Program-made: the position numbers and the translations under genes
Notes under the pieces: generated by a model
Database searches by the model: none
Told to the model about the DNA's origin: nothing
The model's input: the letters and a program-made list of their open reading frames with translations, nothing else
Shown here: one piece after another, positions 288 to 14,718 of the stretch
How the letters are laid out: each line of letters begins with the position of its first letter
Position numbering within the stretch: the first letter of the stretch is position 1
Virus record (IMG/VR): IMGVR_UViG_2737471861_000012
Span: 1 to 14,718 of that record
DNA length: 14,718 bases
Reading direction: 5' to 3' (one strand)
Source of the DNA: a virus
Taxonomy: Duplodnaviria; Heunggongvirae; Uroviricota; Caudoviricetes

Positions 288-341
288 TGTTTTGTAAAAA
301 GAGCGGTACCAGCTGGAAGCAAGTGTACAAACTGGTACCGC
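288..341 (-). terminator. Candidate intrinsic terminator for leftward transcripts: 10-bp perfect stem plus T-rich tract
   Basis: gcggtaccag (303-312) pairs perfectly with ctggtaccgc (332-341) around a 19-nt loop; on the minus strand the hairpin is followed by TCTTTTTAC (rc of 294-302). Confidence 0.4.
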
Positions 342-814
342 CAAAGCAGTGGCTGTTGTGGTGGGGTTGTCACTCAGGCGTATGGTCAACCTGACAATCC
401 GGTGTCCTCAACGAGGAAAGAGTAACCCCGCCATACTTACCGCCGCGCCATTTCGCGGATTACCACAACGCTGAGAGCACTTAGCCAGTTACGGCACCAC
501 ACACTTTGTCGCGGTTCCATAAATGCCCTCATCGTTGCACCCTGGTCTCTTCCCAGGCGTCAAACCGAATCGCCACGCTGGTTAGGCGTCTTATCAGCAT
601 CCTCATTGACTTGCACATTCCGGCTACCTGGTTTGTTTGCCCGAGCAAGGAGTGGATTGTCCCCTTTAACGTCCCCAGACCGCTAACGACGCATGTGCCA
701 TACGCCGTGTTACAACCAAATTTTGTTAGTACCTTGTTTGTTGGTCTGGAAAGAAAGATAAAATGAAGTTGCGCATTATGCAAGTGTTTTTATTGCGAGA
801 TATGCAATTTGATG

Positions 815-841
815 GGTAATGAAAAGCCACCTTCGGGTGGC
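815..841 (-). terminator. Candidate intrinsic terminator just downstream of the cI-like gene
   Basis: gccacc-ttcg-ggtggc hairpin (826-841); on the minus strand it is followed by TTTTCATTA. It lies about 20 nt past the cI stop. Confidence 0.55.
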
Positions 842-862
842 TAATTGATGAGGAGGTAAGGG

Positions 863-1555: not shown

Positions 1556-1652
1556 GCGTTTATTACATTTCTTTATTGCGCGTTAAGCAAATCAACTTGC
1601 GCAAAGTGTTTGCGTAAAATAATATGCTCATCACGCAATATGTGGAGGTTAT
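1556..1652. promoter_or_regulatory. Divergent cI/cro intergenic switch region (candidate PRM/PR promoters and operators)
   Basis: 97-bp gap between divergent repressor and cro-like genes; repeated TTGCGC / GCGCAA / TGCGTAA / CACGCAA half-site-like motifs, including the palindrome TTGCGCAA; GGAGG Shine-Dalgarno before the cro ATG. Confidence 0.55.
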
Positions 1653-1913
1653 ATGCAATCACCATTACGGAATGTGCGTAAGGCGCACGGATTTACTTTG
1701 CAGCATGTTGCTGCGGGCGTTCAGGTCAATCCAGCGACGCTGAGTCGTATTGAAAGACTGGAACAAATTCCATCTATCGATCTTGCAGAACGTCTGGCCA
1801 ATTTTTTTAAGGGTGAAATCAGCGAAATGCAGATTCTTTATCCGGCACGTTTTCAATCTAGCCAAAACCAGAATGGGTTTAAACCACAGGAACAGGAGGT
1901 AAGCCGTGGGTAA
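1653..1913 (+). CDS. cro: Cro-like HTH regulator
   Basis: 86-aa ORF divergent from cI; HTH-like segment HGFTLQHVAAGVQVNPATLSRIER; GGAGG RBS 6-8 nt upstream of the ATG. Confidence 0.8.
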   Translation: MQSPLRNVRKAHGFTLQHVAAGVQVNPATLSRIERLEQIPSIDLAERLANFFKGEISEMQILYPARFQSSQNQNGFKPQEQEVSRG

Positions 1914-2457
1914 GCATCACTGGAAAGTGGAAAAACAACCTGACTGGTACGTGAAAGCTGTCAGAAAAACTATCGCGGCATTGCCAGGTGGTTACGCTGA
2001 AGCTGCTGAGTGGCTGGATGTAACAGAGAACGCTTTATTCAACCGCCTTCGTGCCGATGGTGATCAGTTTTTTCCGTTGGGATGGGCAATGGTTTTACAG
2101 CGTGCGGCTAGTACTCATCACATTGCGGATGCTGTCGCACAGTCTGCTGGTGGGGTGTTTGTATCACTTCCTGAAATTGAGGAAGTAGAGAACGCTGATA
2201 TCAACCAACGTCTACTGGAAGTCATTGAACAGATCGGGAGTTACTCAAAGCAGATTCGTTCGGCAATCGAAGATGGGGTAGTGGAGCCACATGAACAGAC
2301 AGCAATTAATGATGAGTTGTATCTGTCAATTTCGAAGCTCCAGGAGCATGCAGCACTGTTCTACAAAATCTTCTGCGCTTCAGAAAAGAGTGACGCCCGC
2401 GAGTGTGCAGCTCCGGGCGTCGTGGCGTTTTGTGTCCGTGGAGAAACTAACGCATGA
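1906..2457 (+). CDS. CII-like early regulatory protein (function putative)
   Basis: 183-aa ORF with GTG start at 1906, preceded by AGGAGG and overlapping the cro stop; it sits where cII-type regulators lie in lambdoid phages. Family assignment is from position and general resemblance only. Confidence 0.6.
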   Translation: MGKHHWKVEKQPDWYVKAVRKTIAALPGGYAEAAEWLDVTENALFNRLRADGDQFFPLGWAMVLQRAASTHHIADAVAQSAGGVFVSLPEIEEVENADINQRLLEVIEQIGSYSKQIRSAIEDGVVEPHEQTAINDELYLSISKLQEHAALFYKIFCASEKSDARECAAPGVVAFCVRGETNA

Positions 2458-2782
2458 ACAGTTTAACGGCAAATAACCGTTTGTCGCAACAGTTGGTGGT
2501 CAGTGTCGCTGCACACCTGTTGTTACGGCATGAATGCAGATTACCAAATCACCTGGCTGTAAGTAACCACAGAGAACTTTACCTGACTGTGGGGGGCGAG
2601 TTGTGCAGGAACTTAACCGCTGGTTTCGTGACGGAAGAGGACTTTATGTTCATGTTATTCGTTGGGAGCCAGAAACACAGCGCGTTATCTATCTTCGCAA
2701 AGACTACCCGCATGAGTGCTTTAGTCCTTTGTGGAAATTCAGGCGTGATTTTGTTGAGTGTGAAGGACCACCAGCACATTGA
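2454..2782 (+). pseudogene. Possible frameshifted small gene: ATG 2454 (frame 0, ATGA overlap with upstream stop) joined at a G6 tract (2591-2596) to a frame +2 ORF ending 2782
   Basis: The frame-0 ORF starts with the same ATGA coupling seen across this operon. A protein-like frame +2 ORF (VQELNRWFRDGRGLYVHVIRWEPETQRVIYLRKDYPHECFSPLWKFRRDFVECEGPPAH) begins right after a GGGGGG homopolymer. Combined length would be about 109 aa. Confidence 0.25.
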
Positions 2783-3056
2783 TTCTGCCATTCCGGGACG
2801 TTACACTGTTCAGGCACCTTATAAAGCGGGTGCCGGGATTGGCGTCCTGGAATTGCATACGGCGACAATGGGCGCGTTAGCGTCTTTTTTGTTGCTACAG
2901 CTCAGCTATACCCAAATTATGGTGGGCTGGGTGGGGGCACCGAAAGGTGCGCCGGTTTCCGTATGCGCCGGTTACGCCAACCCTGCTCAGTTCACCACCA
3001 GCGAAATTGGCGTTTCCGGTGGTGGAAGTTATCCATTGCATACGGAGGCTGCCATC

Positions 3057-3602
3057 ATGGCTACGATCCCAACCCTCACTCAACCTGAAATTGCCATCGT
3101 TGATGGTCAGGCTGTTACTTCATCCCTGGCTGTAGCCAACTTCTTTTCCAAACGTCATGACGATGTACTGAAAAAGATCCGCACGCTTGAATGCTCCGCA
3201 TCATTCACTGCCCGCAATTTTTCGGTGAGTGATTACACCGATTGCACAGGCCGCAAACTACCTTGCTATCAAATAACCCGCGACGGCTTTGCGTTTCTTG
3301 CTATGGGTTTCACGGGGAAACGTGCTGCCCAGTTCAAAGAGGCATACATCAATGCCTTTAACCAGATGGAGAAACAGCTTTTAAAGCCCTCTGTACCGAG
3401 CGACGTTGCACATAACGCCAGCGTTCTCTGTTCCTACATTTCATCAATTCATCAGGTCTGGCTGCAGCAGCTTTATCCTATGTTGGCAAAAGCCGAATCT
3501 CCGCTGGCTGTTAGCTTGTATGACTATATTAATGATGCTTCGGCACTGGCCTGCCTCATAAATTTGTCGCTGAACCCTTCAGAGGTAAGGGGGCGCAAAT
3601 GA
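3057..3602 (+). CDS. rha: Rha-family phage regulatory protein
   Basis: N-terminus MATIPTLTQPEIAIVDGQAVTSSLAVANFFSKRHDDVLKKIRTLE matches the Rha domain pattern; GGAGG RBS at about 3043-3047. The 382-aa ORF in the track (2454-3602) is judged an artefactual upstream extension in the same frame. Confidence 0.8.
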   Translation: MATIPTLTQPEIAIVDGQAVTSSLAVANFFSKRHDDVLKKIRTLECSASFTARNFSVSDYTDCTGRKLPCYQITRDGFAFLAMGFTGKRAAQFKEAYINAFNQMEKQLLKPSVPSDVAHNASVLCSYISSIHQVWLQQLYPMLAKAESPLAVSLYDYINDASALACLINLSLNPSEVRGRK

Positions 3603-3823
3603 TCCGGAATATTTTCAAACGGTTTACCAATCATACTTTCCGTTGTCCTCGTCCGGGTCAGTGGTACACCACGCCTGCAGGGCATGTTCTACGTGTTAGC
3701 CTGGTTGACCGTGAATGTCAGAAGGTGATTTGTGAACCGCTGGGCCGTAATTACCGCGTCAGTATGCCGCTTATAGCCTTTTGCTCCGGAAAAAACATGA
3801 AGCATCTCGGAGGTGCAGCATGA
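3599..3823 (+). CDS. Small hypothetical protein (74 aa, four Cys), translationally coupled
   Basis: ATG overlaps the Rha stop (ATGA) and its stop overlaps the next gene's start (ATGA); no family recognised. Confidence 0.45.
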   Translation: MIRNIFKRFTNHTFRCPRPGQWYTTPAGHVLRVSLVDRECQKVICEPLGRNYRVSMPLIAFCSGKNMKHLGGAA

Positions 3824-4638
3824 GTATGGAGCTGATGGTTAAAGCGATGAAAATTCGAGTGGGTAATCCATTGCGAAAACTGGTTCTGATCAAGCTGGCT
3901 GATAATGCCAGCGATCAGGGTGAGTGCTGGCCCAGCTACCAGCATATTGCTGACCAGTGCGAGATTAGCAAACGTTCTGTGATGAATCATATTGCGGCCC
4001 TTTGTGAGTCCGGGCTGGTAAAAAAAGTCACCCGGAAAGGTGAAAAAGGTAACTCAAGTAATATCTATCTCCTTCATCTGGATGGTGCAGGAGATTCACT
4101 AGGGGGTAGTGCAAATAATTCACTATCTGGTGCAGCAAATTCACCAGGTAGTGCAGGAGTTGCACCAGGGGGTGGTGCAGGAGATTCACCCAGAACCAGT
4201 CACTCTTTTGAACCAGTCAAAGAACCAGTCAATGAACCAATAGCTGTTGGTGCATCAGTTGATGAGTCCATGCGAGTTCGTTCAAACCGACCGGAATACT
4301 CTCCGGAGTTTGAGCAGGCATGGCTGGCATATCCCAAACGTGCTGGTGGCAATTCAAAATCTGCAGCCTTCAAAGCCTGGAAAGCCCGTTTGAATGAGGG
4401 GGTAAAACCCGAAACCATGCTGGAAGGTGTGAAACGCTACGCGGGCTGGGTATCTGCGATGGGTAACAGCGGCACACAATTTGTGAAACAGGCTGTCACG
4501 TTCTTTGGTCCGGATCGTCATTTCGAAGAATCCTGGGAAGTTCCTGCGGTATCTGCAGCCAGACGCGAGGACCCGTACTTCAAAGCCAGTTACGACAACG
4601 TGGACTACAGCCAGATCCCGGCAGGATTCAGGGGGTGA
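3820..4638 (+). CDS. O-like replication initiator: N-terminal winged-helix DNA-binding domain, Gly/Ser/Ala-rich linker encoded by iterons, C-terminal domain
   Basis: Start ATG 3820 with GGAGG upstream. N-terminal LRKLVLIKLADNASDQGECWPSYQHIADQCEISKRSVMNHIAALCESGLVKK resembles HTH_36-type phage replication initiator domains. An internal array of 5 iteron-like repeats lies in the linker-coding region, as in lambda O. Confidence 0.65.
   Translation: MSMELMVKAMKIRVGNPLRKLVLIKLADNASDQGECWPSYQHIADQCEISKRSVMNHIAALCESGLVKKVTRKGEKGNSSNIYLLHLDGAGDSLGGSANNSLSGAANSPGSAGVAPGGGAGDSPRTSHSFEPVKEPVNEPIAVGASVDESMRVRSNRPEYSPEFEQAWLAYPKRAGGNSKSAAFKAWKARLNEGVKPETMLEGVKRYAGWVSAMGNSGTQFVKQAVTFFGPDRHFEESWEVPAVSAARREDPYFKASYDNVDYSQIPAGFRG
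4085..4189. repeat. Iteron array (candidate origin of replication) inside the O-like gene
   Basis: Five copies of GTGCA-N5/6-T(T/G)CAC (gtgcaggagattcac 4085-4099, gtgcaaataattcac 4109-4123, gtgcagcaaattcac 4130-4144, gtgcaggagttgcac 4151-4165, gtgcaggagattcac 4175-4189) at 21-24 bp spacing, followed by three GAACCAGTCA repeats (about 4191-4235). Confidence 0.55.
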
Positions 4639-4640
4639 TT

Positions 4641-5129
4641 ATGAGTCTTTTGAATGAAGTTCAGAAATTCATTGAAGCCCATCCGGGGTGTACTTCCGGA
4701 GACATTGCGGATGCTTTTGCTGGTTACTCACGGCAGCGCGTTCTGCAGTCAGCAAGCAAGTTACGTCAGAGTGGGCGTGTGGCTCACCGTTGTGAAGGAG
4801 ATACACGCAGACATTTCCCGCGCCTGACTGAGAGAGCGCAGGAGCCGGAACCACAATCTGTTCGTGAAACCAGACCTGTGCGCAATTTCTATGTCGGCAC
4901 TAACGATCCCCGTGTGATTTTGTGCCTGACCCGCCAGGCTGAAGAACTGGAGTCCAGGGGCTTATACCGTCGTGCTGCAACGGTGTGGATGGCGGCATTC
5001 CGTGAAAGCCACTCCCAGCCAGAACGAAACAATTTTCTGGCGCGTCGTGAGCAGTGTTTACGGAAAAGCAGCAAGTGCGCTGTATCGGGTGATGAGTGGT
5101 ATCTGTCAGGGAATTACGTGGGGGCTTAA
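4641..5129 (+). CDS. PerC-family transcriptional regulator-like protein with N-terminal winged-helix-like extension
   Basis: Segment AEELESRGLYRRAATVWMAAFRESHSQPERNNFLARREQCLRK fits the PerC/Pch signature (LE..GLWRRAA..W ... RR..CL). Start ATG 4641, 3 nt after the previous stop. Confidence 0.55.
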   Translation: MSLLNEVQKFIEAHPGCTSGDIADAFAGYSRQRVLQSASKLRQSGRVAHRCEGDTRRHFPRLTERAQEPEPQSVRETRPVRNFYVGTNDPRVILCLTRQAEELESRGLYRRAATVWMAAFRESHSQPERNNFLARREQCLRKSSKCAVSGDEWYLSGNYVGA

Positions 5130-5455
5130 TGACGACGTTAACTCAATGCCAGCAGCAGGTGCTGGATATGCTGATTTCTTATCAGAAAGAACGTGGTTTC
5201 CCGCCAACCAATCAGGAGGTGGCAGCCATGCTGGGATACCGTTCGGTGAATGCAGCGGTGGAGCATCTTCGCGCACTGGAGAAAAAAGGCGTCATCACGA
5301 TAAAGCGTGGCGTGGCCCGGGGTATCACGTTTCATACCACAGTGAAGGACGACGACAGCGAGGCAGCCGGGATTATCCGCGCACTGCTTGCCGGTGAGGA
5401 AAACGCCAGACTGCGTGCAGCCCACTGGTTACATGAGAGGGGCCTGAAAGTATGA
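5129..5455 (+). CDS. LexA DNA-binding-domain-like protein (winged helix only, no peptidase domain)
   Basis: LTQCQQQVLDMLISYQKERGFPPTNQEVAAMLGYRSVNAAVEHLRALEKKGVITIKRGVARGI closely follows the LexA N-terminal domain pattern (PPT..E....G..S.NAA.EHL.AL..KG.I). ATG overlaps the previous stop (TAATG). No GDSM/KR peptidase motifs. Confidence 0.65.
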   Translation: MTTLTQCQQQVLDMLISYQKERGFPPTNQEVAAMLGYRSVNAAVEHLRALEKKGVITIKRGVARGITFHTTVKDDDSEAAGIIRALLAGEENARLRAAHWLHERGLKV

Positions 5456-5841
5456 AGCTGATCCTGCCTTTCCCGCCCAGCGTGAACACGTACTGGCGAC
5501 ACCCCAACAAAGGGGCGTTTGCTGGTAAGAGTCTGATAAGCGCAGCGGGGCGCAAATTCCAGAGCGCGGCATGCGCAGCAATAGTTGAGCAGTTACGTCG
5601 TCTGCCGAAACCAACGTCGGCACCTGCTTCAGTGGAGATCGTGTTGTTTCCTCCGGATAACAGGATCCGCGATCTGGACAACTATAACAAGGCGCTGTTT
5701 GACGCCCTGACCCACGCGGGGGTGTGGGAAGACGACAGTCAGGTGAAAAGAATGCTGGTGGAGTGGGGACCGGTTATCCCGAAAGGGAAGGTCGAGATCA
5801 CTATCAGTAAGTATGAGAAACCGGCGGGTGCAGCCGCCTGA
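5452..5841 (+). CDS. rusA: RusA-family Holliday junction resolvase
   Basis: Motifs LPFPPSVNTYWRH and RIRDLDNYNKALFDALTHAGVWEDDSQV match RusA; ATGA overlap with the upstream gene. Confidence 0.9.
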   Translation: MKLILPFPPSVNTYWRHPNKGAFAGKSLISAAGRKFQSAACAAIVEQLRRLPKPTSAPASVEIVLFPPDNRIRDLDNYNKALFDALTHAGVWEDDSQVKRMLVEWGPVIPKGKVEITISKYEKPAGAAA

Positions 5842-5860
5842 TTAAGAGGAGAAACGAAGT

Positions 5861-6658
5861 ATGAATAATCTGATGGTTATTGATGGTATTGAAGTTCGTC
5901 GTGATGCTTATGGGCGTTACAGCCTGAACGATCTGCACAGGGCTGCTGGTTCTCTGGATAAGCATAAGCCTGCATTCTGGCTCCGCAATGAGCAAACTGA
6001 GCGTTTAATAAGCGAGTTGCAGATTTGCAACTCGGTCAATATAGAGCCAGTTAACGTTATTCGTGGCGGAAATAACCAGGGGACGTATGTCTGCAAAGAA
6101 CTGGTGTATGCCTATGCAATGTGGATCAGCCCGTCATTCCATCTGAAGGTGATCCGTACTTTCGACATGGTAACCAGCGCACCGGAAAAATTATCCGGAC
6201 AGGCTGCTGACAAGATGCAGGCTGGTGTGATCCTGCTGGACTTTATGCGCCGGGAATTAAACCTGTCTAACTCATCAGTGCTTGGAGCCTGTCAGAAGCT
6301 TCAGGAGGCTGTTGGCTTACCGAATCTGGCACCGCGCTATGCCATTGATGCTCCTGCTGACGCGCCTGATGGCTCAAGCCGCCCCACGCTGTCACTGAGT
6401 GCACTGCTGAAGCAGTATGGTATCCGCCTGACAGCTAATCAGGCATATCACCAGATGGTGAAGCTGGGGATCGTCGAGCAGCGCGAACGATACAGCCGTA
6501 CCGCGATTAACAACATCAAAAAATTCTGGTCGCTGACGGCGAAAGGCTGCATGTTCGGCAAGAACATCACCAGTCCCGCAAATCCGCGCGAGACGCAGCC
6601 GCATTTCTTCGAATCCCGATTCCCTGAGCTGTTAAAGCTGCTCGATACCGTTCATTGA
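5861..6658 (+). CDS. KilA-N domain protein (putative antirepressor/regulator)
   Basis: N-terminal 110 aa (VIDGIEVRRDAYGRYSLNDLHRAAG...GTYVCKELVYAYAMWISPSFHLKVI) fits the KilA-N domain; GAGGAG-type RBS upstream. Confidence 0.75.
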   Translation: MNNLMVIDGIEVRRDAYGRYSLNDLHRAAGSLDKHKPAFWLRNEQTERLISELQICNSVNIEPVNVIRGGNNQGTYVCKELVYAYAMWISPSFHLKVIRTFDMVTSAPEKLSGQAADKMQAGVILLDFMRRELNLSNSSVLGACQKLQEAVGLPNLAPRYAIDAPADAPDGSSRPTLSLSALLKQYGIRLTANQAYHQMVKLGIVEQRERYSRTAINNIKKFWSLTAKGCMFGKNITSPANPRETQPHFFESRFPELLKLLDTVH

Positions 6659-6659
6659 G

Positions 6660-7655
6660 GTGATCGTGAGAGCACTACTGACCCCTGAAATTGCCCCGCG
6701 TATGGGGATCGTATTGTTCAGGCCAGGTTCAGAGCTGATGCCCCTGTTTATGCAGGGGCGTGTCCTGCTGGAGCCTGAGCCGGAACGTTATTCATCTTTC
6801 GCCAGCGGTGCCGTTCCGGCGGCATCACAACCGCTGGCGGATGATCCTGCCGTTCGGGCCGTGTTCCGCAATGAGGCAGTGATCCGTCGTGCTGGTGGCG
6901 TGGAATGTCTTGAAAGCTGGTTACTTCGTGAAAAAGGCTGTCAGTGGCCTCATTCCGACTGGCACAGCGAGAACATGACCACAATGCGACACGCTCCGGG
7001 CGCAATCCGTCTGTGCTGGCACTGCGATAACCAGCTGCGCGATCAGTTCACGGAACGGCTGGAATCAATGGCAACGGATAACTGTGCCCGCTGGGTGTTG
7101 TCTGTTGTGCGTCGGGATCTCGGTTTTGATGATAGTCACGTTGTGACAATGCCGGAACTGTGCTGGTGGCTGATTCGTAATGACCTGGCGGATGCCTTAC
7201 CGGAAAGTGCAGCCCGTAAGGCACTGAGATTACCGAAGCCTGTTGTGCCGTCTGTCTCCCGGGAAAGTGACCTTGTGCCTTCGGTTCCTGCCACCAGCAT
7301 CATCCAGGATAAGGCGAAAAAGGTGCTGGCGCTGAAAGTGGATCCGGAGTCGCCGGAGTCTTTTATGTTACGCCCAAAACGTCGCCGCTGGGTTAACGAA
7401 AAGTACACGCGCTGGGTTAAGACGCAGCCGTGTGCATGTTGTGGAAAGCCTGCTGATGATCCCCACCACCTGATAGGCCACGGTCAGGGTGGAATAGGTA
7501 CAAAAGCGCATGACCTCTTCGTGCTGCCTTTGTGCAGAAAGCATCACGACGAGCTGCATGCGGATACCGTGGCATTTGAAGAGAAGTATGGCTCCCAGTT
7601 GGAGCTGATATTTCGTTTTATCGATCGCGCGCTGGCAACTGGCGTGCTGGCCTGA
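6660..7655 (+). CDS. DUF968-family protein (YdfU-like), Cys/His-rich C-terminal HNH-like motif
   Basis: C-terminal KYTRWVKTQPCACCGKPADDPHHLIGHGQGGIGTKAHDLFVLPLCRKHHDELHADTVAFEEKYG is characteristic of DUF968 proteins in lambdoid nin regions. The start is uncertain (GTG 6660 or 6666, or ATG 6699). Confidence 0.7.
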   Translation: MIVRALLTPEIAPRMGIVLFRPGSELMPLFMQGRVLLEPEPERYSSFASGAVPAASQPLADDPAVRAVFRNEAVIRRAGGVECLESWLLREKGCQWPHSDWHSENMTTMRHAPGAIRLCWHCDNQLRDQFTERLESMATDNCARWVLSVVRRDLGFDDSHVVTMPELCWWLIRNDLADALPESAARKALRLPKPVVPSVSRESDLVPSVPATSIIQDKAKKVLALKVDPESPESFMLRPKRRRWVNEKYTRWVKTQPCACCGKPADDPHHLIGHGQGGIGTKAHDLFVLPLCRKHHDELHADTVAFEEKYGSQLELIFRFIDRALATGVLA

Positions 7656-7672
7656 TTTTGTGGAGAAAGTTG

Positions 7673-8035
7673 ATGCGTGATATTCAGATGGTTCTGGATC
7701 GTTGGGGTGCATGGGCGGCGAGTGATAGTTCTGGGGTAGACTATTCGCCTATAGCTGCTGGGTTTAAAGGGCTTCTTCCCTATACAAGCAAAACACGTCA
7801 GGCTTGTTCAGATAGTGATGCATTAATTATTGAAGGTTGTCTTGCTCGTCTAAAGCAAAAAAGACCTGAAGAACACTCGCTTCTTGTTGCCCATTACCTA
7901 TACGGTATCTCTAAAAGAAAGCTCGCTAAAGCTCGCAAAAAGGATGAGAAAATAATACGCATTGAGATACAGATGGCTGAGGGATTTATAGAAGGTTGTC
8001 TAGCTATTCTAAATGTTAGCTTAGATATGGATTAA
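7673..8035 (+). CDS. Q-like late-gene antiterminator (small Q family of the QuuD / phage 82 type)
   Basis: MRDIQMVLDRWGAWAA...AGFKGL...IIEGCLARLK...AEGFIEGCLAILNVSLDMD matches the small Q antiterminator pattern; GGAGAAAG RBS. The 3-prime two-thirds of the gene is AT-rich like the downstream cargo. Confidence 0.75.
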   Translation: MRDIQMVLDRWGAWAASDSSGVDYSPIAAGFKGLLPYTSKTRQACSDSDALIIEGCLARLKQKRPEEHSLLVAHYLYGISKRKLAKARKKDEKIIRIEIQMAEGFIEGCLAILNVSLDMD

Positions 8036-8078
8036 TATCTTGGTTTGGATAAGCAGGTGTGCTTGCACCTGCTTAATA

Positions 8079-8531
8079 TTATATGTGGGGTAATATCCAG
8101 TTTATTTTCCTCCAGGTACTTGCAAATGAAACTATTGATACGATCAGGGTCGAGAAACCATATAAGGTTAGGGCGAAATCAAGTCTTACAGAGGTAATGG
8201 TGATTTTTTCATTTATAAACATTGCTATCAGCGGGAAAATACATGCTAATATTAAGGTAACTCCCGTAGATAACAGGTTATGAATAATTTTAGGTAAAAT
8301 CTTGTTTTGTTTTAAAGCAAAAATAATTCCATCAGTACTTGAACTTGCAGAACTGAAGATGGAAATAGCGGCCAATACAAAACCAAACAAAATGCCTGCC
8401 ACCGTAGATAACACTCCGGCTGTACTTAAGATATCAGAGTGAGCCATAGGCGCTAGGTATTTCCCAAGCACCCAAGCTAACAGCCCACTGATAACTATGT
8501 TAATTAAAACTTTAATAAGCATAATCATCAT
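8079..8531 (-). CDS. Small integral membrane protein, four predicted TM helices; second gene of the AT-rich cassette (RexB-like architecture, hypothesis)
   Basis: 147-150 aa with four hydrophobic segments (IKVLINIVISGLLAWVLGKYL; ILSTAGVLSTVAGILFGFVLAAISIF; LSTGVTLILACIFPLIAMFI; LDFALTLYGFSTLIVSIVSFA). Likely start is the ATG at 8520-8522, preceded by AAGGA, 14 nt downstream of the partner gene. AT-rich codon usage unlike the flanking genes. Confidence 0.7.
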   Translation of the reverse strand: MMIMLIKVLINIVISGLLAWVLGKYLAPMAHSDILSTAGVLSTVAGILFGFVLAAISIFSSASSSTDGIIFALKQNKILPKIIHNLLSTGVTLILACIFPLIAMFINEKITITSVRLDFALTLYGFSTLIVSIVSFASTWRKINWILPHI

Positions 8532-8545
8532 CCTTAAAAATAAGA

Positions 8546-9478
8546 TCAGATTTCATATTGCTTTAAATACTGACCATGTTCAATTTTAGCACTGATCAAG
8601 GCAGTACGCACATCTGTTTCTTTTGCGTAGCCATCTTTTGTGTTAATGTTTTTTTCACTGATCAGAACTTGATTGAGAAGACTCCTTGAATGAGTATTTT
8701 TAGGTTCAGTGACATTAGCTTTACGTAATAAGTGAGGAACTTTTTCTATTAATTCCTTTATTCCACTTTTTACTTCATCACTGAGATAACCACGGATTAA
8801 TTTACGTTGCGATGCTCTACCTCTAAGTGATAGTTTTAAATGCGAACCGCCCATCCCAGCCATCATTTCAATCATACTTTTGGAAAATGAATTCGAAAGG
8901 TCATAATCCGTTGCGCTAAAATTACGTGGAGCGGCGAGTGTAATTTCACAGCTACGTAAAGTGCTTCCTGTTTCAAGTAGTTCTTTTACACTTTCTTTTT
9001 TCCAAATTGCCTCAAACGCTACAGGTTTGTTTTCTTCAGAAAAATTGAATAAAAGAAATGCTAAATCGGAAACTTTAGGTCCTAAATGATTTTGAGATAA
9101 AACAAGAATGTCTTTCTTATAGTAGTAAATAAAATAAGTACGTTCGACTATATATTTTTTATCATCTAACGGAATATTGTGCTCATCCCAATTTTCATCA
9201 CCAATATAAGGTAAGTGGAAACCATCACGAGAGCATGATAGATAACCAAAATAGAACTCCGCCTGTGCGTCTTTTTCTAAGAATACAATCTTTAATTTTT
9301 TCTTATCAAACTCAGCGGTATAAGAATTTTGCGAAGGTGTAACAATGGTTGTATACATGTTGTCAAATGCAAGTTGTGCATTTGATGTAGTTGACTTCGT
9401 TCCTGAGGAGCTTTGGAAGAAACCGATACGCATTTTTTTTTGTTTAGTTAGTGGCGCGGAAGTGGCTGTAGTAGTCAT
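8546..9478 (-). CDS. Hypothetical soluble ~310-aa protein; first gene of the AT-rich two-gene cassette (candidate abortive-infection / exclusion component, RexA-like by architecture only)
   Basis: Long minus-strand ORF with an AAGGG RBS-like sequence upstream; Lys/Tyr/Asn-rich and AT-rich; no nucleotidyltransferase, HEPN or TIR motif recognisable by eye. Opposite orientation to all flanking phage genes. Confidence 0.7.
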   Translation of the reverse strand: MTTTATSAPLTKQKKMRIGFFQSSSGTKSTTSNAQLAFDNMYTTIVTPSQNSYTAEFDKKKLKIVFLEKDAQAEFYFGYLSCSRDGFHLPYIGDENWDEHNIPLDDKKYIVERTYFIYYYKKDILVLSQNHLGPKVSDLAFLLFNFSEENKPVAFEAIWKKESVKELLETGSTLRSCEITLAAPRNFSATDYDLSNSFSKSMIEMMAGMGGSHLKLSLRGRASQRKLIRGYLSDEVKSGIKELIEKVPHLLRKANVTEPKNTHSRSLLNQVLISEKNINTKDGYAKETDVRTALISAKIEHGQYLKQYEI

Positions 9479-9778
9479 TAAAATTACCCTTTATTATCCT
9501 TTTGAATCAATGGGTTGTGATTTGTTAATGATCCTGGGTTCGTTGCATATGCATAATCTATCAAAAAAAACTTACGCGGTCCGCATTTTCTCGTTTACTG
9601 TGTTAAGAGTGGTTACTTCGCCACACAGCTTAAACCCGCCGTCGAGCGGTTTTTTTGTACCTGTAAACCTGGTGCAGTACAGTAAACACGCTGGTGGTCG
9701 TGAATACTGACTTTTTATCTTGCTGGCTTTTTAGACAAGAGTTATTGGTATGTCATGTTAACCAGAAGGGAAAAAGAC

Positions 9779-9982
9779 ATGCTAAAACAGCAAGATATGA
9801 CAGAAACCGCCGCCGCAGTCCTTCATTTCTTACCTGCTGACAAGTGGGTAACGCCACGCATGATGACGAGAACTACCGGAGTAAGCGAAGCCCGGTGCCA
9901 GTTAATACTGACTCAGTTAGTTCTGGCGGGTCTGGCGAAGGATAACGGCGGGTACGGGAATAAATTCAGACGCTGCCAGTAA
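9779..9982 (+). CDS. Small winged-helix-like protein (possible FaeA/PapI-like regulator), hypothetical
   Basis: About 67 aa from ATG 9779 (AAGGGA Shine-Dalgarno 7 nt upstream); LHFLPADKWVTPRMMTRTTGVSEARCQLILTQLVLAGLAKDNGGYG resembles small wHTH regulators. Divergent from the cassette. Confidence 0.4.
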   Translation: MLKQQDMTETAAAVLHFLPADKWVTPRMMTRTTGVSEARCQLILTQLVLAGLAKDNGGYGNKFRRCQ

Positions 9983-10132
9983 TGGCGGTTTCCTGCTGTG
10001 AAAATGGGCGGCTGGTGGGTGTTGGTAGCACCTGCCAGCCATTCGCTCATGCTTACTGGTCACAAGCGAACCACGGCCCACTGCTTTAGCGCAAAAGCAG
10101 AGTGAGCCTACCAGAGTTACGCTTACTGATCC

Positions 10133-11179
10133 ATGAAAAATACTGTAAAAATAAACAGTGTTGATTTAATCAACGCTGATTGCCTGCATTTTATTCAGTC
10201 CCTGCCTGATGATTCCATTGACCTGATTGTTACCGATCCGCCGTACTTCAAGGTGAAACCCAACGGCTGGGACAATCAGTGGAAAGGGGACGAAGATTAC
10301 CTTAAGTGGCTGGACCACTGTCTGGCCCAGTTCTGGCGGGTGTTAAAACCTGCCGGAAGCCTTTACCTGTTCTGTGGTCATCGCCTGGCATCTGATACCG
10401 AAATCATGATGCGTGAACGCTTTAATGTACTGAACCACATTATCTGGGCGAAGCCGTCCGGACGCTGGAACGGGTGCAACAAGGAAAGCCTGCGGGCGTA
10501 TTTCCCGGCAACAGAACGCATTCTGTTTGCCGAACATTATCAGGGGCCATATCAGCCAAAAAATGACGGCTATGCGGCAAAAGGGCGCGAGCTTAAGCAG
10601 CACGTAATGGCCCCGCTGATTGCTTACTTTCGTGATGCGCGTGAATCACTGGGGATAACGTCAAAACAGATAGCAGAAGCCACCGGAAAGAAAAACATGG
10701 CTTCGCACTGGTTTGGTACCAGTCAGTGGCAGTTACCGAATGAGGCCGATTACAGTAAACTGCAGGCGTTGTTTGCGCGTGTTGCGGCAGAAAAACACCA
10801 GCGCGGTGAACTGGAGCAGCCACACCACCAGCTGGTCAGCACATACAGCGAACTGAACCGGCAATATGCCAGCCTGCTGGAGGAATACAAATCACTGCGG
10901 CGTTATTTTTCCGTATCGGCTGTTGTTCCTTATACGGATGTCTGGACGCACAAGCCCGTGCAGTTTTATCCGGGTAAGCATCCCTGTGAAAAACCGGCGG
11001 ATATGTTGCGTCAGATAATTACTGCCAGCAGCCGTCCGGGCGATTTGGTCGCAGATTTTTTTATGGGGTCGGGGTCGACAATAAAAGCGGCACTGTCGCT
11101 GGGACGCAGGGCGATTGGCGTGGAACTGGAAGAGGAGCGTTTTAATCAGACGGTCAGAGAAATAACGAAAGATTTTTAA
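10133..11179 (+). CDS. Orphan DNA methyltransferase (beta-class N6-adenine or N4-cytosine)
   Basis: DPPY catalytic motif (LIVTDPPYF) is N-terminal and the FxGxG SAM-binding motif (FFMGSGST) is C-terminal; no adjacent restriction endonuclease gene. Confidence 0.85.
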   Translation: MKNTVKINSVDLINADCLHFIQSLPDDSIDLIVTDPPYFKVKPNGWDNQWKGDEDYLKWLDHCLAQFWRVLKPAGSLYLFCGHRLASDTEIMMRERFNVLNHIIWAKPSGRWNGCNKESLRAYFPATERILFAEHYQGPYQPKNDGYAAKGRELKQHVMAPLIAYFRDARESLGITSKQIAEATGKKNMASHWFGTSQWQLPNEADYSKLQALFARVAAEKHQRGELEQPHHQLVSTYSELNRQYASLLEEYKSLRRYFSVSAVVPYTDVWTHKPVQFYPGKHPCEKPADMLRQIITASSRPGDLVADFFMGSGSTIKAALSLGRRAIGVELEEERFNQTVREITKDF

Positions 11180-11396
11180 TTCAGTGATGATATAAGTTGT
11201 ATATTTCTGATACAGATGTATACACATATTTAAAACTGAACACCAAATATATTTTTGATGTCTGAAAAACTGTCGTTAGTATTCTGACTGGCCCGGAAGA
11301 CGGTTATTTTTGTGTTCACAGGGGCGTTACTATCGTCTGAAGGACCAGTGCTGGCTTTCCTGGTAATTCGTGTGAGTCCGGAAGCCAGTACAGTAT

Positions 11397-11473
11397 GCGG
11401 GTATCGTATAATGGCTATTACCTCAGCTTTCCAGGCTGATGATGTGGGTTCGATTCCCGCCACCCGCTCTCCA
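11397..11473 (+). tRNA. tRNA-Gly(UCC)-like gene
   Basis: Cloverleaf can be drawn: acceptor GCGGGTA/CACCCGC (one A-C mismatch at 7-66), D-arm GTAT-AATGGCTA-TTAC, anticodon stem TCAGC/GCTGA with loop TTTCCAG (anticodon TCC), T-arm GTGGG-TTCGATT-CCCGC. Very similar to my recollection of E. coli glyT, with a compensatory 6-67 base-pair change. 3-prime end reads TCTCCA rather than TCCA. Confidence 0.65.
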
Positions 11474-11604
11474 GTAAAACTGATGAGTTATAGCTTTATT
11501 ATCAGCACTGGCGAATTTTCGTGAAGAACAGACCTGGCAGGTGGATTTGTTGTTCTTCATTCTGTAGACCTGACCGCCTACAGTTTCAGTGCTTTTTTTT
11601 GTAG

Positions 11605-11629
11605 TCATCCCTGCATATTGCAGGGATGA
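11605..11629. promoter_or_regulatory. 25-bp perfect palindrome (candidate protein-binding site)
   Basis: TCATCCCTGCA-TAT-TGCAGGGATGA: 11-bp perfect arms around a 3-bp centre; a T8 run lies immediately 5-prime (11593-11600), so it does not fit an intrinsic terminator on either strand. Confidence 0.4.
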
Positions 11630-11754
11630 GGTGATACCAGAATGCGTCGTTGTCTGTTTCCGGGCCTACGATTTGCCAGTTTGCACAGCAGGCTGACGGC
11701 GCATTCTTATAACATCTATACAAGTAAACTCTGTTTCATCATTACATTGCGTTA

Positions 11755-11782
11755 GCCCGCCTTATGTGTGGGCATTTTTTTT
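11755..11782 (+). terminator. Intrinsic terminator (first of a tandem set upstream of the lysis genes)
   Basis: gcccgc-cttatgt-gtgggc stem-loop followed by T8. Confidence 0.6.
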
Positions 11783-11794
11783 ACCTATGCATAT

Positions 11795-11817
11795 GGCTCG
11801 CTGCGGCGGGCCTTTTT
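11795..11817 (+). terminator. Intrinsic terminator (second of the tandem set)
   Basis: ggctcgc-tgcg-gcgggcc (7-bp stem with one G-U pair, tetraloop) followed by TTTTT. Confidence 0.5.
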
Positions 11818-11905
11818 CATATCCGCGCCACGCCTGGCGCACATCACATCAGATAGCGCCACACAAAAGGTATCTGCGGGTGCCTTTGACGGGGTGTTTT
11901 TTTAC

Positions 11906-11927
11906 GGGCCGACAGAGGCCCTTTTTT
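11906..11927 (+). terminator. Intrinsic terminator immediately upstream of the holin RBS (tR-prime-like position)
   Basis: gggcc-gacaga-ggccc followed by T6; the AGGAGA RBS and holin ATG follow within 20 nt. Confidence 0.6.
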
Positions 11928-11945
11928 ATTTACAGGAGAAAAAGT

Positions 11946-12326
11946 ATGTCTGAACCCTTGTCCGGTTCCGGCACGGCTGCGGCGCTCGGCGGGGCGACGG
12001 TATTCGGGCTGTTTACCGGAACGGATTTCGGGATTGTGTTTGGTGCATTCGCAGGGGCGCTGTTTGTGGCCACGATACCACAGCAGATTTCTGTCTGGCG
12101 TGTGGCAGCGCATTTTCTGGTGTCGTTCATTGTTGGCGTGCTGGGGGCGGATGTGATGGCGTCTTACCTGGTTGAAAAACTGAATCTCCACAGCACATCT
12201 CTCGACGCGCTTTGCGCGGTACTGGTATCGGTGGTGTCGGTGAAGATTCTCTCATTCATCCACCAGCAGGATATCGCATCGCTGGTATCCGGGCTGTTCT
12301 CCCGTCTGCGGGGGGGGAGGCGGTAA
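11946..12326 (+). CDS. Putative holin (four hydrophobic segments, charged C-terminus)
   Basis: 126 aa from ATG 11946 (AGGAGA RBS); Gly/Ala-rich TM segments and C-terminal RLRGGRR; first gene of an operon ending in an endolysin. The track ORF from 11766 is an upstream extension. Confidence 0.55.
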   Translation: MSEPLSGSGTAAALGGATVFGLFTGTDFGIVFGAFAGALFVATIPQQISVWRVAAHFLVSFIVGVLGADVMASYLVEKLNLHSTSLDALCAVLVSVVSVKILSFIHQQDIASLVSGLFSRLRGGRR

Positions 12327-12604
12327 TGTTAAGTAACCTTCCCGGATTACTGAATGTGGTGTTAAGCACGGTTATCGTGCTGACGCTCTTTTTTTATCGT
12401 CGTGGTGAGTCGAGACATAAACCGCTGATGTCGTGGCTGGCCTGGCTGCTGATGCTGCTTTATGCCTTTGCGCCGCTTTGTTGTCTGTGTGGTCGCTTTC
12501 CACCCGGTAACTGGCTGGTCGTCCTGATTAACCTGGTGTTCTGCGTGCTGGTGATACGAGCACGCGGGAACGTATCAAAAATCCTTGTATTACGAAGGCG
12601 CTGA
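12326..12604 (+). CDS. Small membrane protein in the lysis cassette (possible second holin/antiholin component)
   Basis: 92 aa from ATG 12326 (TAATG overlap with the holin stop, GGGAGG upstream); hydrophobic segments VVLSTVIVLTLFFY, WLAWLLMLLYAFAPL, WLVVLINLVFCVLVI. Confidence 0.5.
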   Translation: MLSNLPGLLNVVLSTVIVLTLFFYRRGESRHKPLMSWLAWLLMLLYAFAPLCCLCGRFPPGNWLVVLINLVFCVLVIRARGNVSKILVLRRR

Positions 12605-12605
12605 T

Positions 12606-13151
12606 ATGAAGTCGAAAGATGAAATTTTTGACGAAATTCTGGGAAAAGAGGGCGGTTACGTCAATCCCCCGGATGATAAAGGTGGTCCGACTAAATGGGG
12701 CATCACTGAAAAAGTTGCCCGTGCACACGGTTATCAGGGCGATATGCGTGACCTGACGCGTGGGCAGGCGCTGGAAATACTCGAGGCGGACTACTGGTAC
12801 GGACCACGATTCGACCAGGTTGAGGACCTGTCTCCTGATATTGCCGCAGAGTTGTGCGATACGGGCGTGAACATGGGGCCAACTGTGGCGTCCAGAATGC
12901 TTCAGCGCTGGCTGAACGTTTTCAACCTGCGCGGGAAACTCTATCCGGATATGGATGCTGATGGACGCATCGGGCCGCGTACTCTTAATGCATTACGGGC
13001 ATATCTGAAAAATCGCAGCAGGGATGGTGAACTGGTACTGGTGAAAGCTCTGAACTGTACGCAGGGCGAGCGTTATCTGGAGCTGGCAGAGAAACGCGAG
13101 GCCAATGAGTCGTTTGTCTATGGCTGGATGAAAGAGCGCGTGGTGGTTTAA
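12606..13151 (+). CDS. Endolysin, glycoside hydrolase family 108-type N-terminal domain with C-terminal peptidoglycan-binding-like region
   Basis: ILGKEGGYVNPPDDKGGPTKWGIT matches the GH108 signature (EGGYxNxPxDxGGxTxxGIT); start ATG 12606 two nt after the upstream stop. Confidence 0.8.
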   Translation: MKSKDEIFDEILGKEGGYVNPPDDKGGPTKWGITEKVARAHGYQGDMRDLTRGQALEILEADYWYGPRFDQVEDLSPDIAAELCDTGVNMGPTVASRMLQRWLNVFNLRGKLYPDMDADGRIGPRTLNALRAYLKNRSRDGELVLVKALNCTQGERYLELAEKREANESFVYGWMKERVVV

Positions 13152-13244
13152 AAACTGACACTGAAGTGCCGAACACCCTCAACTCATGCAGGCTTTTTTC
13201 TGGGGCTACGATGAGCGAAAGTAAGGGGCATAGCATCAGATAGC

Positions 13245-13283
13245 AAAAACCCCGGCTGCGGTAACAGTCCGGGGTTTTCTGTT
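13245..13283 (+). terminator. Intrinsic terminator after the endolysin (A-tract / hairpin / T-tract, potentially bidirectional)
   Basis: aaaaa-ccccgg...ccgggg-ttttctgttt; GC stem 13250-13255 / 13269-13274 with an internal ctg/cag extension. Confidence 0.7.
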
Positions 13284-13311
13284 TCTGGCCCTGGGTAAGG
13301 CAAAGGAGAAC

Positions 13312-13494
13312 ATGAGGAAGTATAAACTAATTCTGTTGAGGTTGACTATGAAAAACGGCCTTGAATTGAAAGCGCCTGTAACTGATGACATCAGCAGAGC
13401 GGTGGCTTTTGCCATTAAGTGGGTGGCGGTTGGCATCGCCGTGTCTCCGATACTGTATGGGCTGGCAAAATTGATTGTTGCTCTGAAATCGTGA
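13312..13494 (+). CDS. Small hypothetical membrane protein (60 aa, C-terminal TM segment)
   Basis: AAGGAG Shine-Dalgarno 4-6 nt before ATG 13312; hydrophobic stretch WVAVGIAVSPILYGLAKLIVAL. Confidence 0.5.
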   Translation: MRKYKLILLRLTMKNGLELKAPVTDDISRAVAFAIKWVAVGIAVSPILYGLAKLIVALKS

Positions 13495-13502
13495 GTGGTG
13501 AT

Positions 13503-13685
13503 ATGACGCGAAAACACTGGACACACAGAACGCCGCGAACAGCGGCGAAATGGGCACTGGTAGCGATACTGGTGCCTTTTTTATTGGTGGGGTGCGTCAG
13601 CCTGGATAAGGCGCGCCAGCTTTTCGATACCGCGTCTCAGGTCTGTCAGCTTATTGATGGTGTTCGGCAGTGTATGCAGAACTGA
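13503..13685 (+). CDS. Small putative lipoprotein (60 aa; lipobox L-V-G-C)
   Basis: Signal-peptide-like N-terminus (basic n-region, hydrophobic WALVAILVPFLLVG, then Cys); mature part about 43 aa with three Cys. Starts 9 nt after the upstream ORF. Confidence 0.5.
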   Translation: MTRKHWTHRTPRTAAKWALVAILVPFLLVGCVSLDKARQLFDTASQVCQLIDGVRQCMQN

Positions 13686-13847
13686 TCGCCTGTAATAGCA
13701 GAATATTTTGCTGAAAAATGAAAGATGCGCCGGCGTCCGGAAAGCATGAAATTCTGCTGCGTGTGCCAATTTTATCTTATTCATTCTAAATCTTGCCGAA
13801 TCAAGCAACTGCCCGGGCGGCAAGGGGCATTTTTATCCGGAGGGGAT

Positions 13848-14072
13848 ATGAAGAGATTACTGGTAACCGTAAAGCCCTTTAACGGAACGATTCCATTCAG
13901 GGTTTTGCAGCGTGGACGTGTTCTGGTTAAGGATATCTTCAGTGGTAAATGCACGGAATGTTATTCCCGGACATATGAAGTGGATGCCACGGATGAAGAA
14001 ATTTCTGTTGAATGTGATCTTAACGCGAATATGGCGGAGATTGTAACAGCCACGTTGTTGCCTGTTTCATGA
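13848..14072 (+). CDS. Hypothetical protein (74 aa)
   Basis: GGAGG RBS 5 nt before ATG 13848; no family recognised. The track ORF from 13725 is an upstream extension. Confidence 0.45.
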   Translation: MKRLLVTVKPFNGTIPFRVLQRGRVLVKDIFSGKCTECYSRTYEVDATDEEISVECDLNANMAEIVTATLLPVS

Positions 14073-14393
14073 ATGACCCAGAATGTCTCTGGGTACCCAA
14101 AAGGAGAACACTATGTTTGTAGAAAATAACCTGAAGGCTGTTCCTGATAACCTGGCTGTCCGGTATTTGCCGGTATGAAATTACCGGAAGGCGCGGTCGT
14201 TACTGAGTAACAGCAGGCATTACAGCAGCCCTTCACACAGAGGGGCTGCGATAATGTGAGAAATAAAAAACCGGTCACAGGGAGCAGCTACACAGAACCG
14301 GCTGGCGAAGACCGCCAATACCACCCATGCATTGATGCAACATACTAATGACAATAGCCGCTATTGATGTAAATGCAATGTTATGCATCGACG

Positions 14394-14436
14394 AAAATAA
14401 AAAACCGGCAGGGGAAATCCATTGAAGATTTGCCGG
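14394..14436 (-). terminator. Candidate minus-strand intrinsic terminator (hairpin then T-run on the minus strand)
   Basis: ccggca (14405-14410) pairs with tgccgg (14431-14436); on the minus strand the hairpin is followed by TTTTTTATTTT (rc of 14394-14404). A similar AAATAAAAAACCGG-hairpin module is at 14261-14301. Confidence 0.4.
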
Positions 14437-14609
14437 TGGCAAAAGAGGGCCATGTTTTTAACCTTAGTCGCAGAGTTACGGAGTGCAACTACGAATGCTG
14501 CCGGTATATGGCTGAATAGCGTTTCAATGATGTACGTCATCTTATCTGTAAATGTTAATGATAAACGCTCTCATTTGTGCGGGTCCTTCCGGTGGGGTGG
14601 CCTGCCACG

Positions 14610-14621
14610 GGGCGGCGACCT
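14610..14621. other. cosN cohesive-end sequence of a lambda-type cos site (cosQ upstream, cosB downstream to the window end)
   Basis: GGGCGGCGACCT followed by CGCGGGTTTTCGCTATTTATGAAAATTTTCCGGTTTAAGGC... is nearly identical to my recollection of the left end of phage lambda; the upstream GCGGGTCCTTCCGGTG resembles the lambda right end. Confidence 0.7.
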
Positions 14622-14718
14622 CGCGGGTTTTCGCTATTTATGAAAATTTTCCGGTTTAAGGCATTTCCGTTCTTCTTCGTCGTAACTTAATGTTTTTATT
14701 AAAATACCCCCTGAAAAG

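Follow-up and report, generated by a model that had tools for sequence, protein, structure and literature searches.

A predicted Q-dependent late promoter separated from gene Q by a cargo cassette in a lambdoid Escherichia coli prophage

The late control region of a lambdoid Escherichia coli prophage was analyzed in the IMG/VR virus record IMGVR_UViG_2737471861_000012, of which positions 1 to 14,718 are referred to as the window. The window covers the regulatory-to-lysis region, and its positions 11180-11946 are 99.3% identical to strain RM11911. Comparison with related phages places the Q-dependent late promoter, pR', most likely at about 9572-9608, which is 2.1 kb upstream of the three terminators T1-T3 that precede the holin gene, and neither beside these terminators nor beside gene Q. 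By the same comparison, a cargo cassette has entered the stretch that separates the end of gene Q from pR', moving the promoter 1.5 kb away from Q. The complete explanation, in which Q would act in trans on the displaced pR' and T1-T3 would shield the lysis genes until they are read through, is considered likely. An earlier note, made from the sequence alone, had looked for the late promoter either directly upstream of the terminators, at 11640-11750, or next to Q; its idea that inserted cargo separates the promoter from gene Q was retained, and both locations were given up.

Gene Q, the inserted cassette and the predicted late promoter

Gene Q (7673-8035, plus strand) encodes a protein of 120 amino acids (aa) of the Q21/933W superfamily, which matches Pfam PF06530 (Phage_antitermQ) over its full length with an E-value of 3.7e-52. 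Residues 8-86 match the solved Q21 structures 6p18 and 6jnx (E 4e-4), and the protein is 88% identical to Q of phage cdtI and 48% identical to Q of H-19B/Sakai. The Q-family protein expected of a lambdoid Q-dependent late cassette is present.

A conserved non-coding block that starts at window position 9602 (GTTAAGAGTGGTTACTTCGCCACACAGCTTAAACCCGCCG..CGGTTTTTTT) is shared with the phages cdtI, phiP27, PPyecE_EH1910 and PhiR40_1 and with the Stx2c phages, and is present in 385 phage records, including H-19B and VT2-Sakai. It corresponds to the initial transcribed region of pR' (TAAGAGTGGTTAC...), for which 9602-9660 is the sole copy in the window, with a single match at 9601-9616 when the window was searched for the block, and the alignment of the window to Sakai and H-19B is confined to 9601-9661. 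Its first part, the discriminator plus initial transcribed sequence GTTAAGAGTGGTTACTTCGCCAC... (9602-9632, plus strand), is shared with H-19B, VT2-Sakai, P27 and DLP12. In H-19B and VT2-Sakai the block begins 15 nucleotides (nt) past the Q stop codon, immediately after TTTACG-16-TATCAT. This stretch is labelled 'pR', putative late promoter' in phage 06-3462, the annotation of which is derived from 933W, and ends there exactly at the start of the block; the hairpin that comes next is annotated as a 'possible rho-independent terminator'.

In both Shiga toxin (Stx) prophages of Sakai (Sp5/Sp15), the primary start of pR' was mapped by differential RNA sequencing (dRNA-seq) to 258 nt upstream of the tR' 3' end that was determined by Term-seq (Sy et al., 2020; PMC7547250). 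Counting 258 nt back from the terminator in the related locus L090 leads to the A of TAAG-A-GTGG (± 2 nt), 7 nt after TATCAT. The late transcript start in the window was assigned via this distance plus position-for-position homology, and is predicted at the A of the same motif, at about 9608. The predicted promoter (9572-9601, plus strand) consists of a weak -35 element at about 9572-9578 (TTACGC or TACGCG), a spacer of 17-18 nt and the -10 element TACTGT at 9596-9601, which has the form TAnnnT. Upstream of the -35 element lies an A-tract (9563-9570) that resembles an UP element, and for which 53 unique sequences give the consensus aaAAA at about -45 to -39. In these 53 sequences, all with a window-type Q, A at -11, T at -7, TAAG at -4 to -1 and AGTGGT at +1 to +6 are invariant, and positions -4 to +6 are unchanged across all three Q types described below. 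An extended -10 element, TGnTAAGAG, with a start about 8 nt downstream was also considered, and was dropped in favour of TAnnnT, which fits the 258-nt distance mapped in Sakai and the two promoter positions, A at -11 and T at -7, that never vary.

Downstream of the predicted start, a terminator-like hairpin (9636-9656, plus strand; CCGC/GCGG plus U7) occupies the tR' position at about +29 to +49. Among 80 related IMG/VR loci, a hairpin with a T-run is found at +43 to +89 in 72, with at least four unrelated stem sequences, an argument for selection acting to keep a terminator close to the promoter.

The cassette between Q and pR' (8079-9478, minus strand) contains two genes, encoding a 150-aa protein without a family hit and a 310-aa DUF6731 protein. 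Its G+C content is 31-37%, compared to 47-56% in the flanks. Neither protein gave a PADLOC hit and DUF6731 was the sole Pfam hit, so no defence function was assigned. The segment from the Q stop codon to the pR' block was surveyed in the window (8036-9571) and in the loci L008-L087. At the same place, 42 distinct cassettes of 0.7-2.7 kb were found in related phages, with the main open reading frames (ORFs) on the minus strand in 40 of them. Representative cassettes match PADLOC models of candidate or known defence systems, among them PDC-S20/KAP NTPase, PDC-M68A HNH, PDC-S42, AriA/PtuA/OLD-like ATPase and Aga-like SMEK proteins; a further match, to an NYN nuclease, is weak in PADLOC and has better support from Pfam. 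The open-access literature, of which coverage was incomplete, gave nothing specific on a cargo hotspot between Q and pR' or on promoter mapping in DLP12.

The distance from the Q stop codon to the block ranges from 8 to 2757 nt among the 80 loci, in which Q is 71-100% identical to that of the window. In compact relatives pR' overlaps the 3' end of Q and the block starts 8-38 nt after the stop codon. The sequence after the Q stop codon differs in each of the 42 cassettes, and the block, together with a palindrome upstream of it, is always found on the distal side. With pR' distal to the cassette, late transcription would not cross the cassette antisense.

This bears on the possibility that pR' follows Q immediately, at 8036-8080, and that late transcription runs antisense through the minus-strand genes, which the earlier note had put forward as its second option. 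In lambda, 21 and 82 the textbook layout has pR' adjacent to Q, the compact relatives have the same adjacency, and a hairpin does follow Q directly (8050-8075; 11 bp, located between the convergent Q and cassette genes, with no good T-run on either strand). However, the 43 nt after Q contain neither the palindrome nor the block, scan and inspection revealed no convincing -35/-10 pair there, the two elements are cassette-distal throughout the 42 cassettes, and the sole pR' homologue of the window lies 1.54 kb past the Q stop codon. A promoter adjacent to Q is therefore regarded as highly improbable in the window.

One of the surveyed loci, L008 (IMGVR_UViG_2609459832_000005), encodes a Q that is 100% identical to that of the window and carries a cassette of equal length, but is without the downstream T2/T3 pair, which indicates that the modules for pR' and for lysis are exchanged in a mosaic manner.

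A candidate Q-binding palindrome at the predicted promoter

The candidate Q-binding element CGCGGTCCGCA (9575-9585, plus strand) is a palindrome, GCGG-T-CCGC, that is centred at about -28, spans -33 to -23 and is present as a single exact copy in the window. The arrangement GCGGTCCGCA-N16-TAAGAGTGG was found in 80 of 83 loci with a window-type Q (74 direct matches and six rescued by a second search), counts which overstate the number of independent events because related loci are phylogenetically non-independent. In the remaining three loci the block could not be detected, and the sequence of at least two of these stops at Q or shortly past it. The spacing from the first base of the palindrome to the block is exactly 26 nt in all but one of the 74 primary matches (73 of 74). 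The intervening cargo between Q and pR' differs from locus to locus.

The Q proteins fall into three clusters with 44-55% identity between them. The first comprises the window, cdtI and PPyecE (72-100% identity within the cluster), the second P27 and STEC309, and the third H-19B, Sakai, QuuD of DLP12, PhiR40_1 and RM11911 (76-97% within). Q is conserved in its N-terminal half and diverged in its C-terminal half, which by alignment to Q21 contains the DNA-binding helices. Each cluster has its own palindrome at the same position: GCGGTCCGC in the window cluster, GGAATTCC in the P27 cluster, and TTACGATCGTAA, TTACGTACGTAA and TTACAATCGTAA in 933W, DLP12 and PhiR40_1, respectively. Coordinates of these inverted repeats centred at -28 of pR' are 9575-9585 in the window, 1475-1486 in L090, about 3698-3709 in L092 and 3977-3984 in L001.

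The palindrome thus looks as a Q-binding element should, and is a candidate for this role; that Q binds to it is what we infer from its co-occurrence with the Q type. A member of the same Pfam family whose loading complex has been characterized structurally is Q21, with which the N-terminal part of the window Q aligns. The Q21 site lies between the -35 and -10 elements and is a TGAGCA direct repeat in which the C:G pairs at -21 and -13 are key, and Q21 is loaded on a promoter-proximal complex (PMC6606751). In contrast, the candidate site in the window is an inverted repeat centred at -28, and the window Q has 120 aa, whereas Q21 has 162 aa and a long loop in its DNA-binding motif. A Q21-type direct repeat of TGAGCA was also looked for as Q site and is absent upstream of the block in the sequences compared.

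Predicted terminators and conserved RNA structure between the tRNA and the holin

The three hairpins with T-runs that the earlier note had described before the holin were independently recovered on the plus strand by a consensus scan. T1 (11755-11782) has a stem at 11755-11773 that is followed by ATTTTTTTTA, T2 (11795-11817) a stem at 11795-11812 with seven pairs, six of them G-C, followed by TTTTTCATAT, and T3 (11906-11927) a stem at 11906-11921 followed by TTTTTTATTT. T3 ends 19 nt ahead of the start codon of the holin gene (11946-12326; Pfam Phage_holin_8, E 5e-22), and the distance of 3.7 kb from Q is obtained when it is measured from the Q stop codon. All three have 5-6 G-C pairs and at least five T within 8 nt past the stem, and so show the GC-rich stem-loop followed by a U-run on the transcribed strand that characterizes intrinsic terminators. 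Isolated folds of T1, T2 and T3 have energies of -11.4, -14.5 and -11.6 kcal/mol, and 5/200, 1/200 and 2/200 dinucleotide shuffles, respectively, folded equally well. In the whole window the consensus scan reported 31 terminator-like sites compared to 15.0 ± 4.6 in shuffles; by arithmetic from these scan numbers, about 0.09 sites are expected per 173 nt of one strand, where three are seen, a density that is about 30 times higher. T1-T3 are ordinary read-through terminators by these features, termination itself being predicted.

The count of at least three given by the earlier note is correct and rather low. A multi-branch structure at 11503-11600, identified by folding and alignment, has an 8-bp closing stem (CAGCACUG/CAGUGCU) with U8 after it, and is probably the first terminator after the tRNA; both this structure and T1 lie between the tRNA and T2. 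Between T2 and T3, a 9-bp hairpin (11866-11887; -11.0 kcal/mol) with a U-run 8 nt further downstream (feature 11866-11902) forms part of a conserved right flank. In addition, folding revealed a perfect 11-bp hairpin at 11605-11629. The multi-branch structure and the 9-bp hairpin are on the plus strand.

The comparison of these sites with tR' holds in part. They are terminators within a predicted Q-dependent late unit, upstream of the lysis genes, that Q-modified polymerase would have to read through. The promoter-proximal tR' position itself is taken by the hairpin at 9636-9656, and the cluster before the holin would be a second, distal barrier. Between the two barriers, the late operon begins with a 75-aa ORF, which carries a TrmB-family annotation in relatives, and a DNA methylase gene (10133-11179); together they span 9755-11179 on the plus strand. 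In P27, cdtI and PPyecE_EH1910, too, these two genes come after the pR' block. The methylase gene is followed by a tRNA-Gly (UCC) at 11397-11469 (plus strand), identified by ARAGORN and with an Rfam score of 51.6 bits. Upstream of the tRNA, TTGATG-16-TAGTAT (11255-11282, plus strand) is a candidate promoter for the tRNA unit. Both hexamers and their spacing are kept in EC11, where the spacer sequence is diverged; the element scores below the threshold of the consensus scan. An analogous promoter, pT, is annotated in a 933W-like phage, and in Sakai the start of a tRNA promoter was mapped at the equivalent position (PMC7547250). The leader between this element and the tRNA (11283-11396) also looks structured, with GACGG/CCGTC becoming GGTGG/CCACC in PapRG and EC11. 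It may represent a tRNA that has degenerated or an element for processing, the tRNA-Gly being the one tRNA that ARAGORN calls.

If the late promoter and a Q utilization site (qut) were located at about 11640-11750, T1-T3 would form a tR' cluster directly after pR'. Such a geometry would resemble that of DLP12, in which the pR' block lies about 120 nt before essD. On the plus strand, a consensus promoter scan gave nothing promoter-like at 11640-11750 or at 8036-8080, negatives that carry little weight because the scan is insensitive to weak promoters and missed pR' at 9572-9601 as well. The interval 11640-11750 contains no Q-type palindrome and no TAAGAGTGG block, even when 2-3 mismatches are allowed, and a pR' homologue exists elsewhere in the window. 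Instead, most of the interval falls within a long imperfect hairpin (11635-11711, plus strand; about 77 nt) that is conserved, has 24 pairs plus an apical stem, lacks a T-run and lies between the tRNA and T1. The main 24 pairs comprise 13 invariant pairs, five with one-sided and two with two-sided variation, and 95.8% of the cells in the alignment are paired; over helices 11-13, which make up this hairpin, 95.8-100% of the cells are paired and three pairs have two-sided changes. Compensatory changes of this kind indicate a constraint at the level of the RNA and not of a promoter. The chance that the late promoter lies in this interval is considered very slim. Possibly the hairpin serves as a processing site or belongs to a structured RNA.

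The structural conservation extends over the whole spacer between the tRNA and the holin (11470-11945), which folds far better than its shuffles (z = -4.97). In the spacer consensus 97.3% of the cells are paired, and 16 pairs show two-sided changes, compared to 1-3 in slid controls and 5.8 ± 1.8 in shuffles; these counts are inflated by the derivation of the consensus structure from the same alignment, and they rest on three sequence lineages, the same three that were returned when IMG/VR was searched for more diverged homologues. The relatives are 60-80% identical to the window over this spacer. Across the lineages, the stem of T1 contains one compensatory pair (UA to CG; helix 15) and that of T2 one two-sided compensatory pair (helix 17), while the stem of T3 does not vary.

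The spacer might therefore be mainly a functional structured RNA, such as a processing platform, for instance with RNase III or RNase E sites that would part the tRNA from the lysis mRNA, or one or more StxS-like small RNAs (sRNAs) that end at terminators; termination would then be secondary. The fold and the two-sided pairs above the controls are in line with this, as is the long hairpin at 11635-11711, which without a T-run is not a terminator, and there is a precedent in the pR'-tR' RNA of Stx phages, which is processed into an Hfq-binding sRNA (PMC7547250). On the other hand, only three lineages contribute, with the structure taken from their own alignment, and no promoter for a separate sRNA was identified. 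At the gathering threshold and at E-values up to 1, Rfam matched only the tRNA in this region; the best other hit, suhB/mmgR over T1 and T2, reached 23 bits against a cut-off of 41 bits and was treated as chance. A structured spacer is, moreover, compatible with terminators that still terminate. It is judged unlikely that structured RNA is the main function of the spacer.

T2 and T3 are also recognizable by what lies between them in other phages. T2 aligns with the terminator after argO (post-tRNA) that precedes stx2 in 933W-like phages and P27, and with the sequence before TerB in STEC309. T3 and the hairpin that precedes it align with what directly adjoins the holin gene upstream in P27 and STEC309, with an invariant stem and a variable loop. 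T2 and T3 stand 122-125 nt apart in the window, RM11911 and L014, 797-798 nt in STEC309 and L035, where TerB and DUF3927 are encoded, and 1701 nt in P27, which carries stx2e at this place. With the same flanks enclosing different gene cargo in related phages, T2 is, by this alignment, the left and T3 the right flank of a toxin/cargo slot. The slot is empty in the window, and T2 and T3 are thereby brought 122 nt apart; the approximate junction of the empty slot, derived from the T2-T3 spacing across relatives, is at 11847-11853.

The coincidence of T2 and T3 with the exact edges of this variable slot, and the occurrence of T2-like sequences in 27 loci with varied contexts, would also fit a reading in which T1-T3 have no selected role in late control and are leftover module boundaries, terminators that moved along with tRNA and cargo modules and act as recombination joints in mosaic phages, and the hairpin at 9636-9656 is the only relevant Q-dependent barrier. 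This reading is at odds with the stems being kept by compensatory substitutions in lineages with spacers of 60-80% identity, and with the retention of T3 directly ahead of the holin in phages with a filled slot as well as in those with an empty one. Furthermore, the hairpin at 9636-9656 is weak, and a probable tRNA promoter is located between it and the holin. We consider it improbable that T1-T3 are mere remnants.

In the preferred explanation, the displaced promoter and the two sets of terminators would work together as follows. The late operon would start at pR' (about 9572-9601), with transcription from near 9608. Q would act on pR' in trans, probably bound to CGCGGTCCGCA at -28 while the polymerase sits in the initial transcribed block, and the Q-loaded polymerase would become resistant to termination. 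Without Q, most transcripts would stop at the hairpin at 9636-9656. Given the weakness of this hairpin in the window and the passage of RNA through its Sakai counterpart, a fraction of the transcripts probably continues into the small ORF, the methylase gene and the tRNA-Gly gene, and the tRNA is probably also driven by its own promoter at 11255-11282. The structure at 11503-11600 and T1, T2 and T3 would then stop this Q-independent transcription and keep the lethal lysis genes silent in the lysogen, until Q-modified polymerase coming from 9608 reads through all terminators, as expected from the established behaviour of Q.

Several observations weigh against this explanation, in addition to the relatedness of the loci that were counted. 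The -35 element of the predicted pR' is poor, with 2-3 matches out of six, the promoter was not reported by the consensus scan, and the initial transcribed region shows no clear TAnnnT hexamer downstream of +1 that could be taken for a sigma-70-dependent, -10-like pause element. With a 4-bp stem and -6.1 kcal/mol, the hairpin at 9636-9656 is the weakest version of the promoter-proximal hairpin. In Sakai the 258-nt RNA extends beyond the homologous hairpin (PMC7547250), which makes it uncertain whether the hairpin should be named tR'. The insulating role of T1-T3 is one that we infer, and the high structural conservation across 11470-11945 suggests that the spacer RNA may do more than terminate.

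Relation to known late regions and further features of the window

The annotated relatives cdtI, phiP27, PPyecE_EH1910, PhiR40_1 and the Stx2c phages have a common order of Q, a variable segment, a small ORF, the methylase gene, one or more tRNAs, optional cargo and the holin. With 933W, VT2-Sakai and H-19B the window shares the PF06530 Q superfamily, the block (TAAGAGTGGTTAC...CCCGCCG..CGGGTTTTTTT), a palindrome centred at -28, a proximal hairpin at the same place and one or more downstream tRNAs with their own promoter, a candidate in the window, and its T2 is homologous to their terminator after argO. It differs from them in its Q (48% identical), in the palindrome (GCGGTCCGC compared to TTACGATCGTAA), in the position of pR', which lies 1.5 kb from Q in the window and overlaps the Q stop codon in these phages, and in having the 75-aa ORF and a complete methylase gene after the proximal hairpin, with no toxin gene. 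Regarding homology to StxS, its 74-nt 3' part and the terminator at +258 are absent from the window.

The phage phiP27 is similar in the pR' block, the small ORF, the methylase gene, the tRNA(s), the T2 and T3 homologues and the same pair of holins. In contrast to the window, it carries stx2e and one ORF between T2 and T3 (1701 nt compared to 122 nt), its Q is 54% identical with the palindrome GGAATTCC, and the segment between Q and pR' contains a plus-strand GIY-YIG-like ORF instead of the minus-strand cassette. In the cryptic prophage DLP12 of E. coli K-12, the order of quuD, the minus-strand nmpC, the pR' block with its terminator, and essD/rrrD/rzpD also displaces the promoter from Q. There, however, the block and terminator lie about 120 nt before the holin without methylase gene, tRNA or distal terminator cluster, and Q is of the 933W type with the palindrome TTACGTACGTAA.

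The architecture is thus already known as that of a Stx-phage late region without the toxin, and the result mostly clarifies that the prophage is a toxin-less relative of Stx phages in which the toxin slot is empty. What might be new is the displacement of the promoter, the cargo slot with its orientation bias and the existence of three pairs of Q and palindrome; no description of them was found in the open-access literature searched, which is incomplete. For annotation, assuming that pR' lies next to Q is unsafe in this large set of E. coli prophages, to which DLP12 belongs, as the promoter may be up to 2.7 kb from Q, behind cargo genes, and can be located by the short conserved block together with the palindrome specific to the Q type. 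Two cargo slots, between Q and pR' and between T2 and T3, would offer places for the entry of toxin and defence genes, and the three natural pairs of Q and palindrome provide material for studying DNA recognition in this Q subfamily.

Going further, it can be proposed tentatively, with slightly less than even confidence in all parts together, that in phages with Q proteins of the 933W, DLP12, P27 and window types the gap between Q and pR' is a dedicated cargo hotspot with a strong bias in orientation, that each Q class reads a different inverted repeat at -28, that GCGGTCCGC is a so far undescribed Q element and that the spacer may encode a structured RNA. If this is true, binding of a dimer to the palindrome GCGGTCCGC would be a geometry that differs from the direct-repeat site of Q21, and the hotspot would be usable since Q finds its promoter in trans.

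Downstream of T3, the lysis cassette (11946-13151, plus strand; Pfam PF16931 and PF05449) consists of the holin gene, a second holin gene (12326-12604) and an endolysin gene (12585-13151), the product of which has a GH108 annotation in RM11911. Toward its 3' end, at 12310-12326, the first holin gene contains a stretch of eight G. In the window this ORF has 381 nt and ends at the start of the second holin gene, compared to 393 nt and an 11-nt overlap for the RM11911 orthologue annotated by PGAP, a length difference that could reflect a length-variable homopolymer. In the early region (2814-3002), the Hfq-binding RNA isrK (61.8 bits) is found beside a C4 antisense RNA (80.7 bits), a pair that corresponds to a P1/P7-type antirepressor control module.

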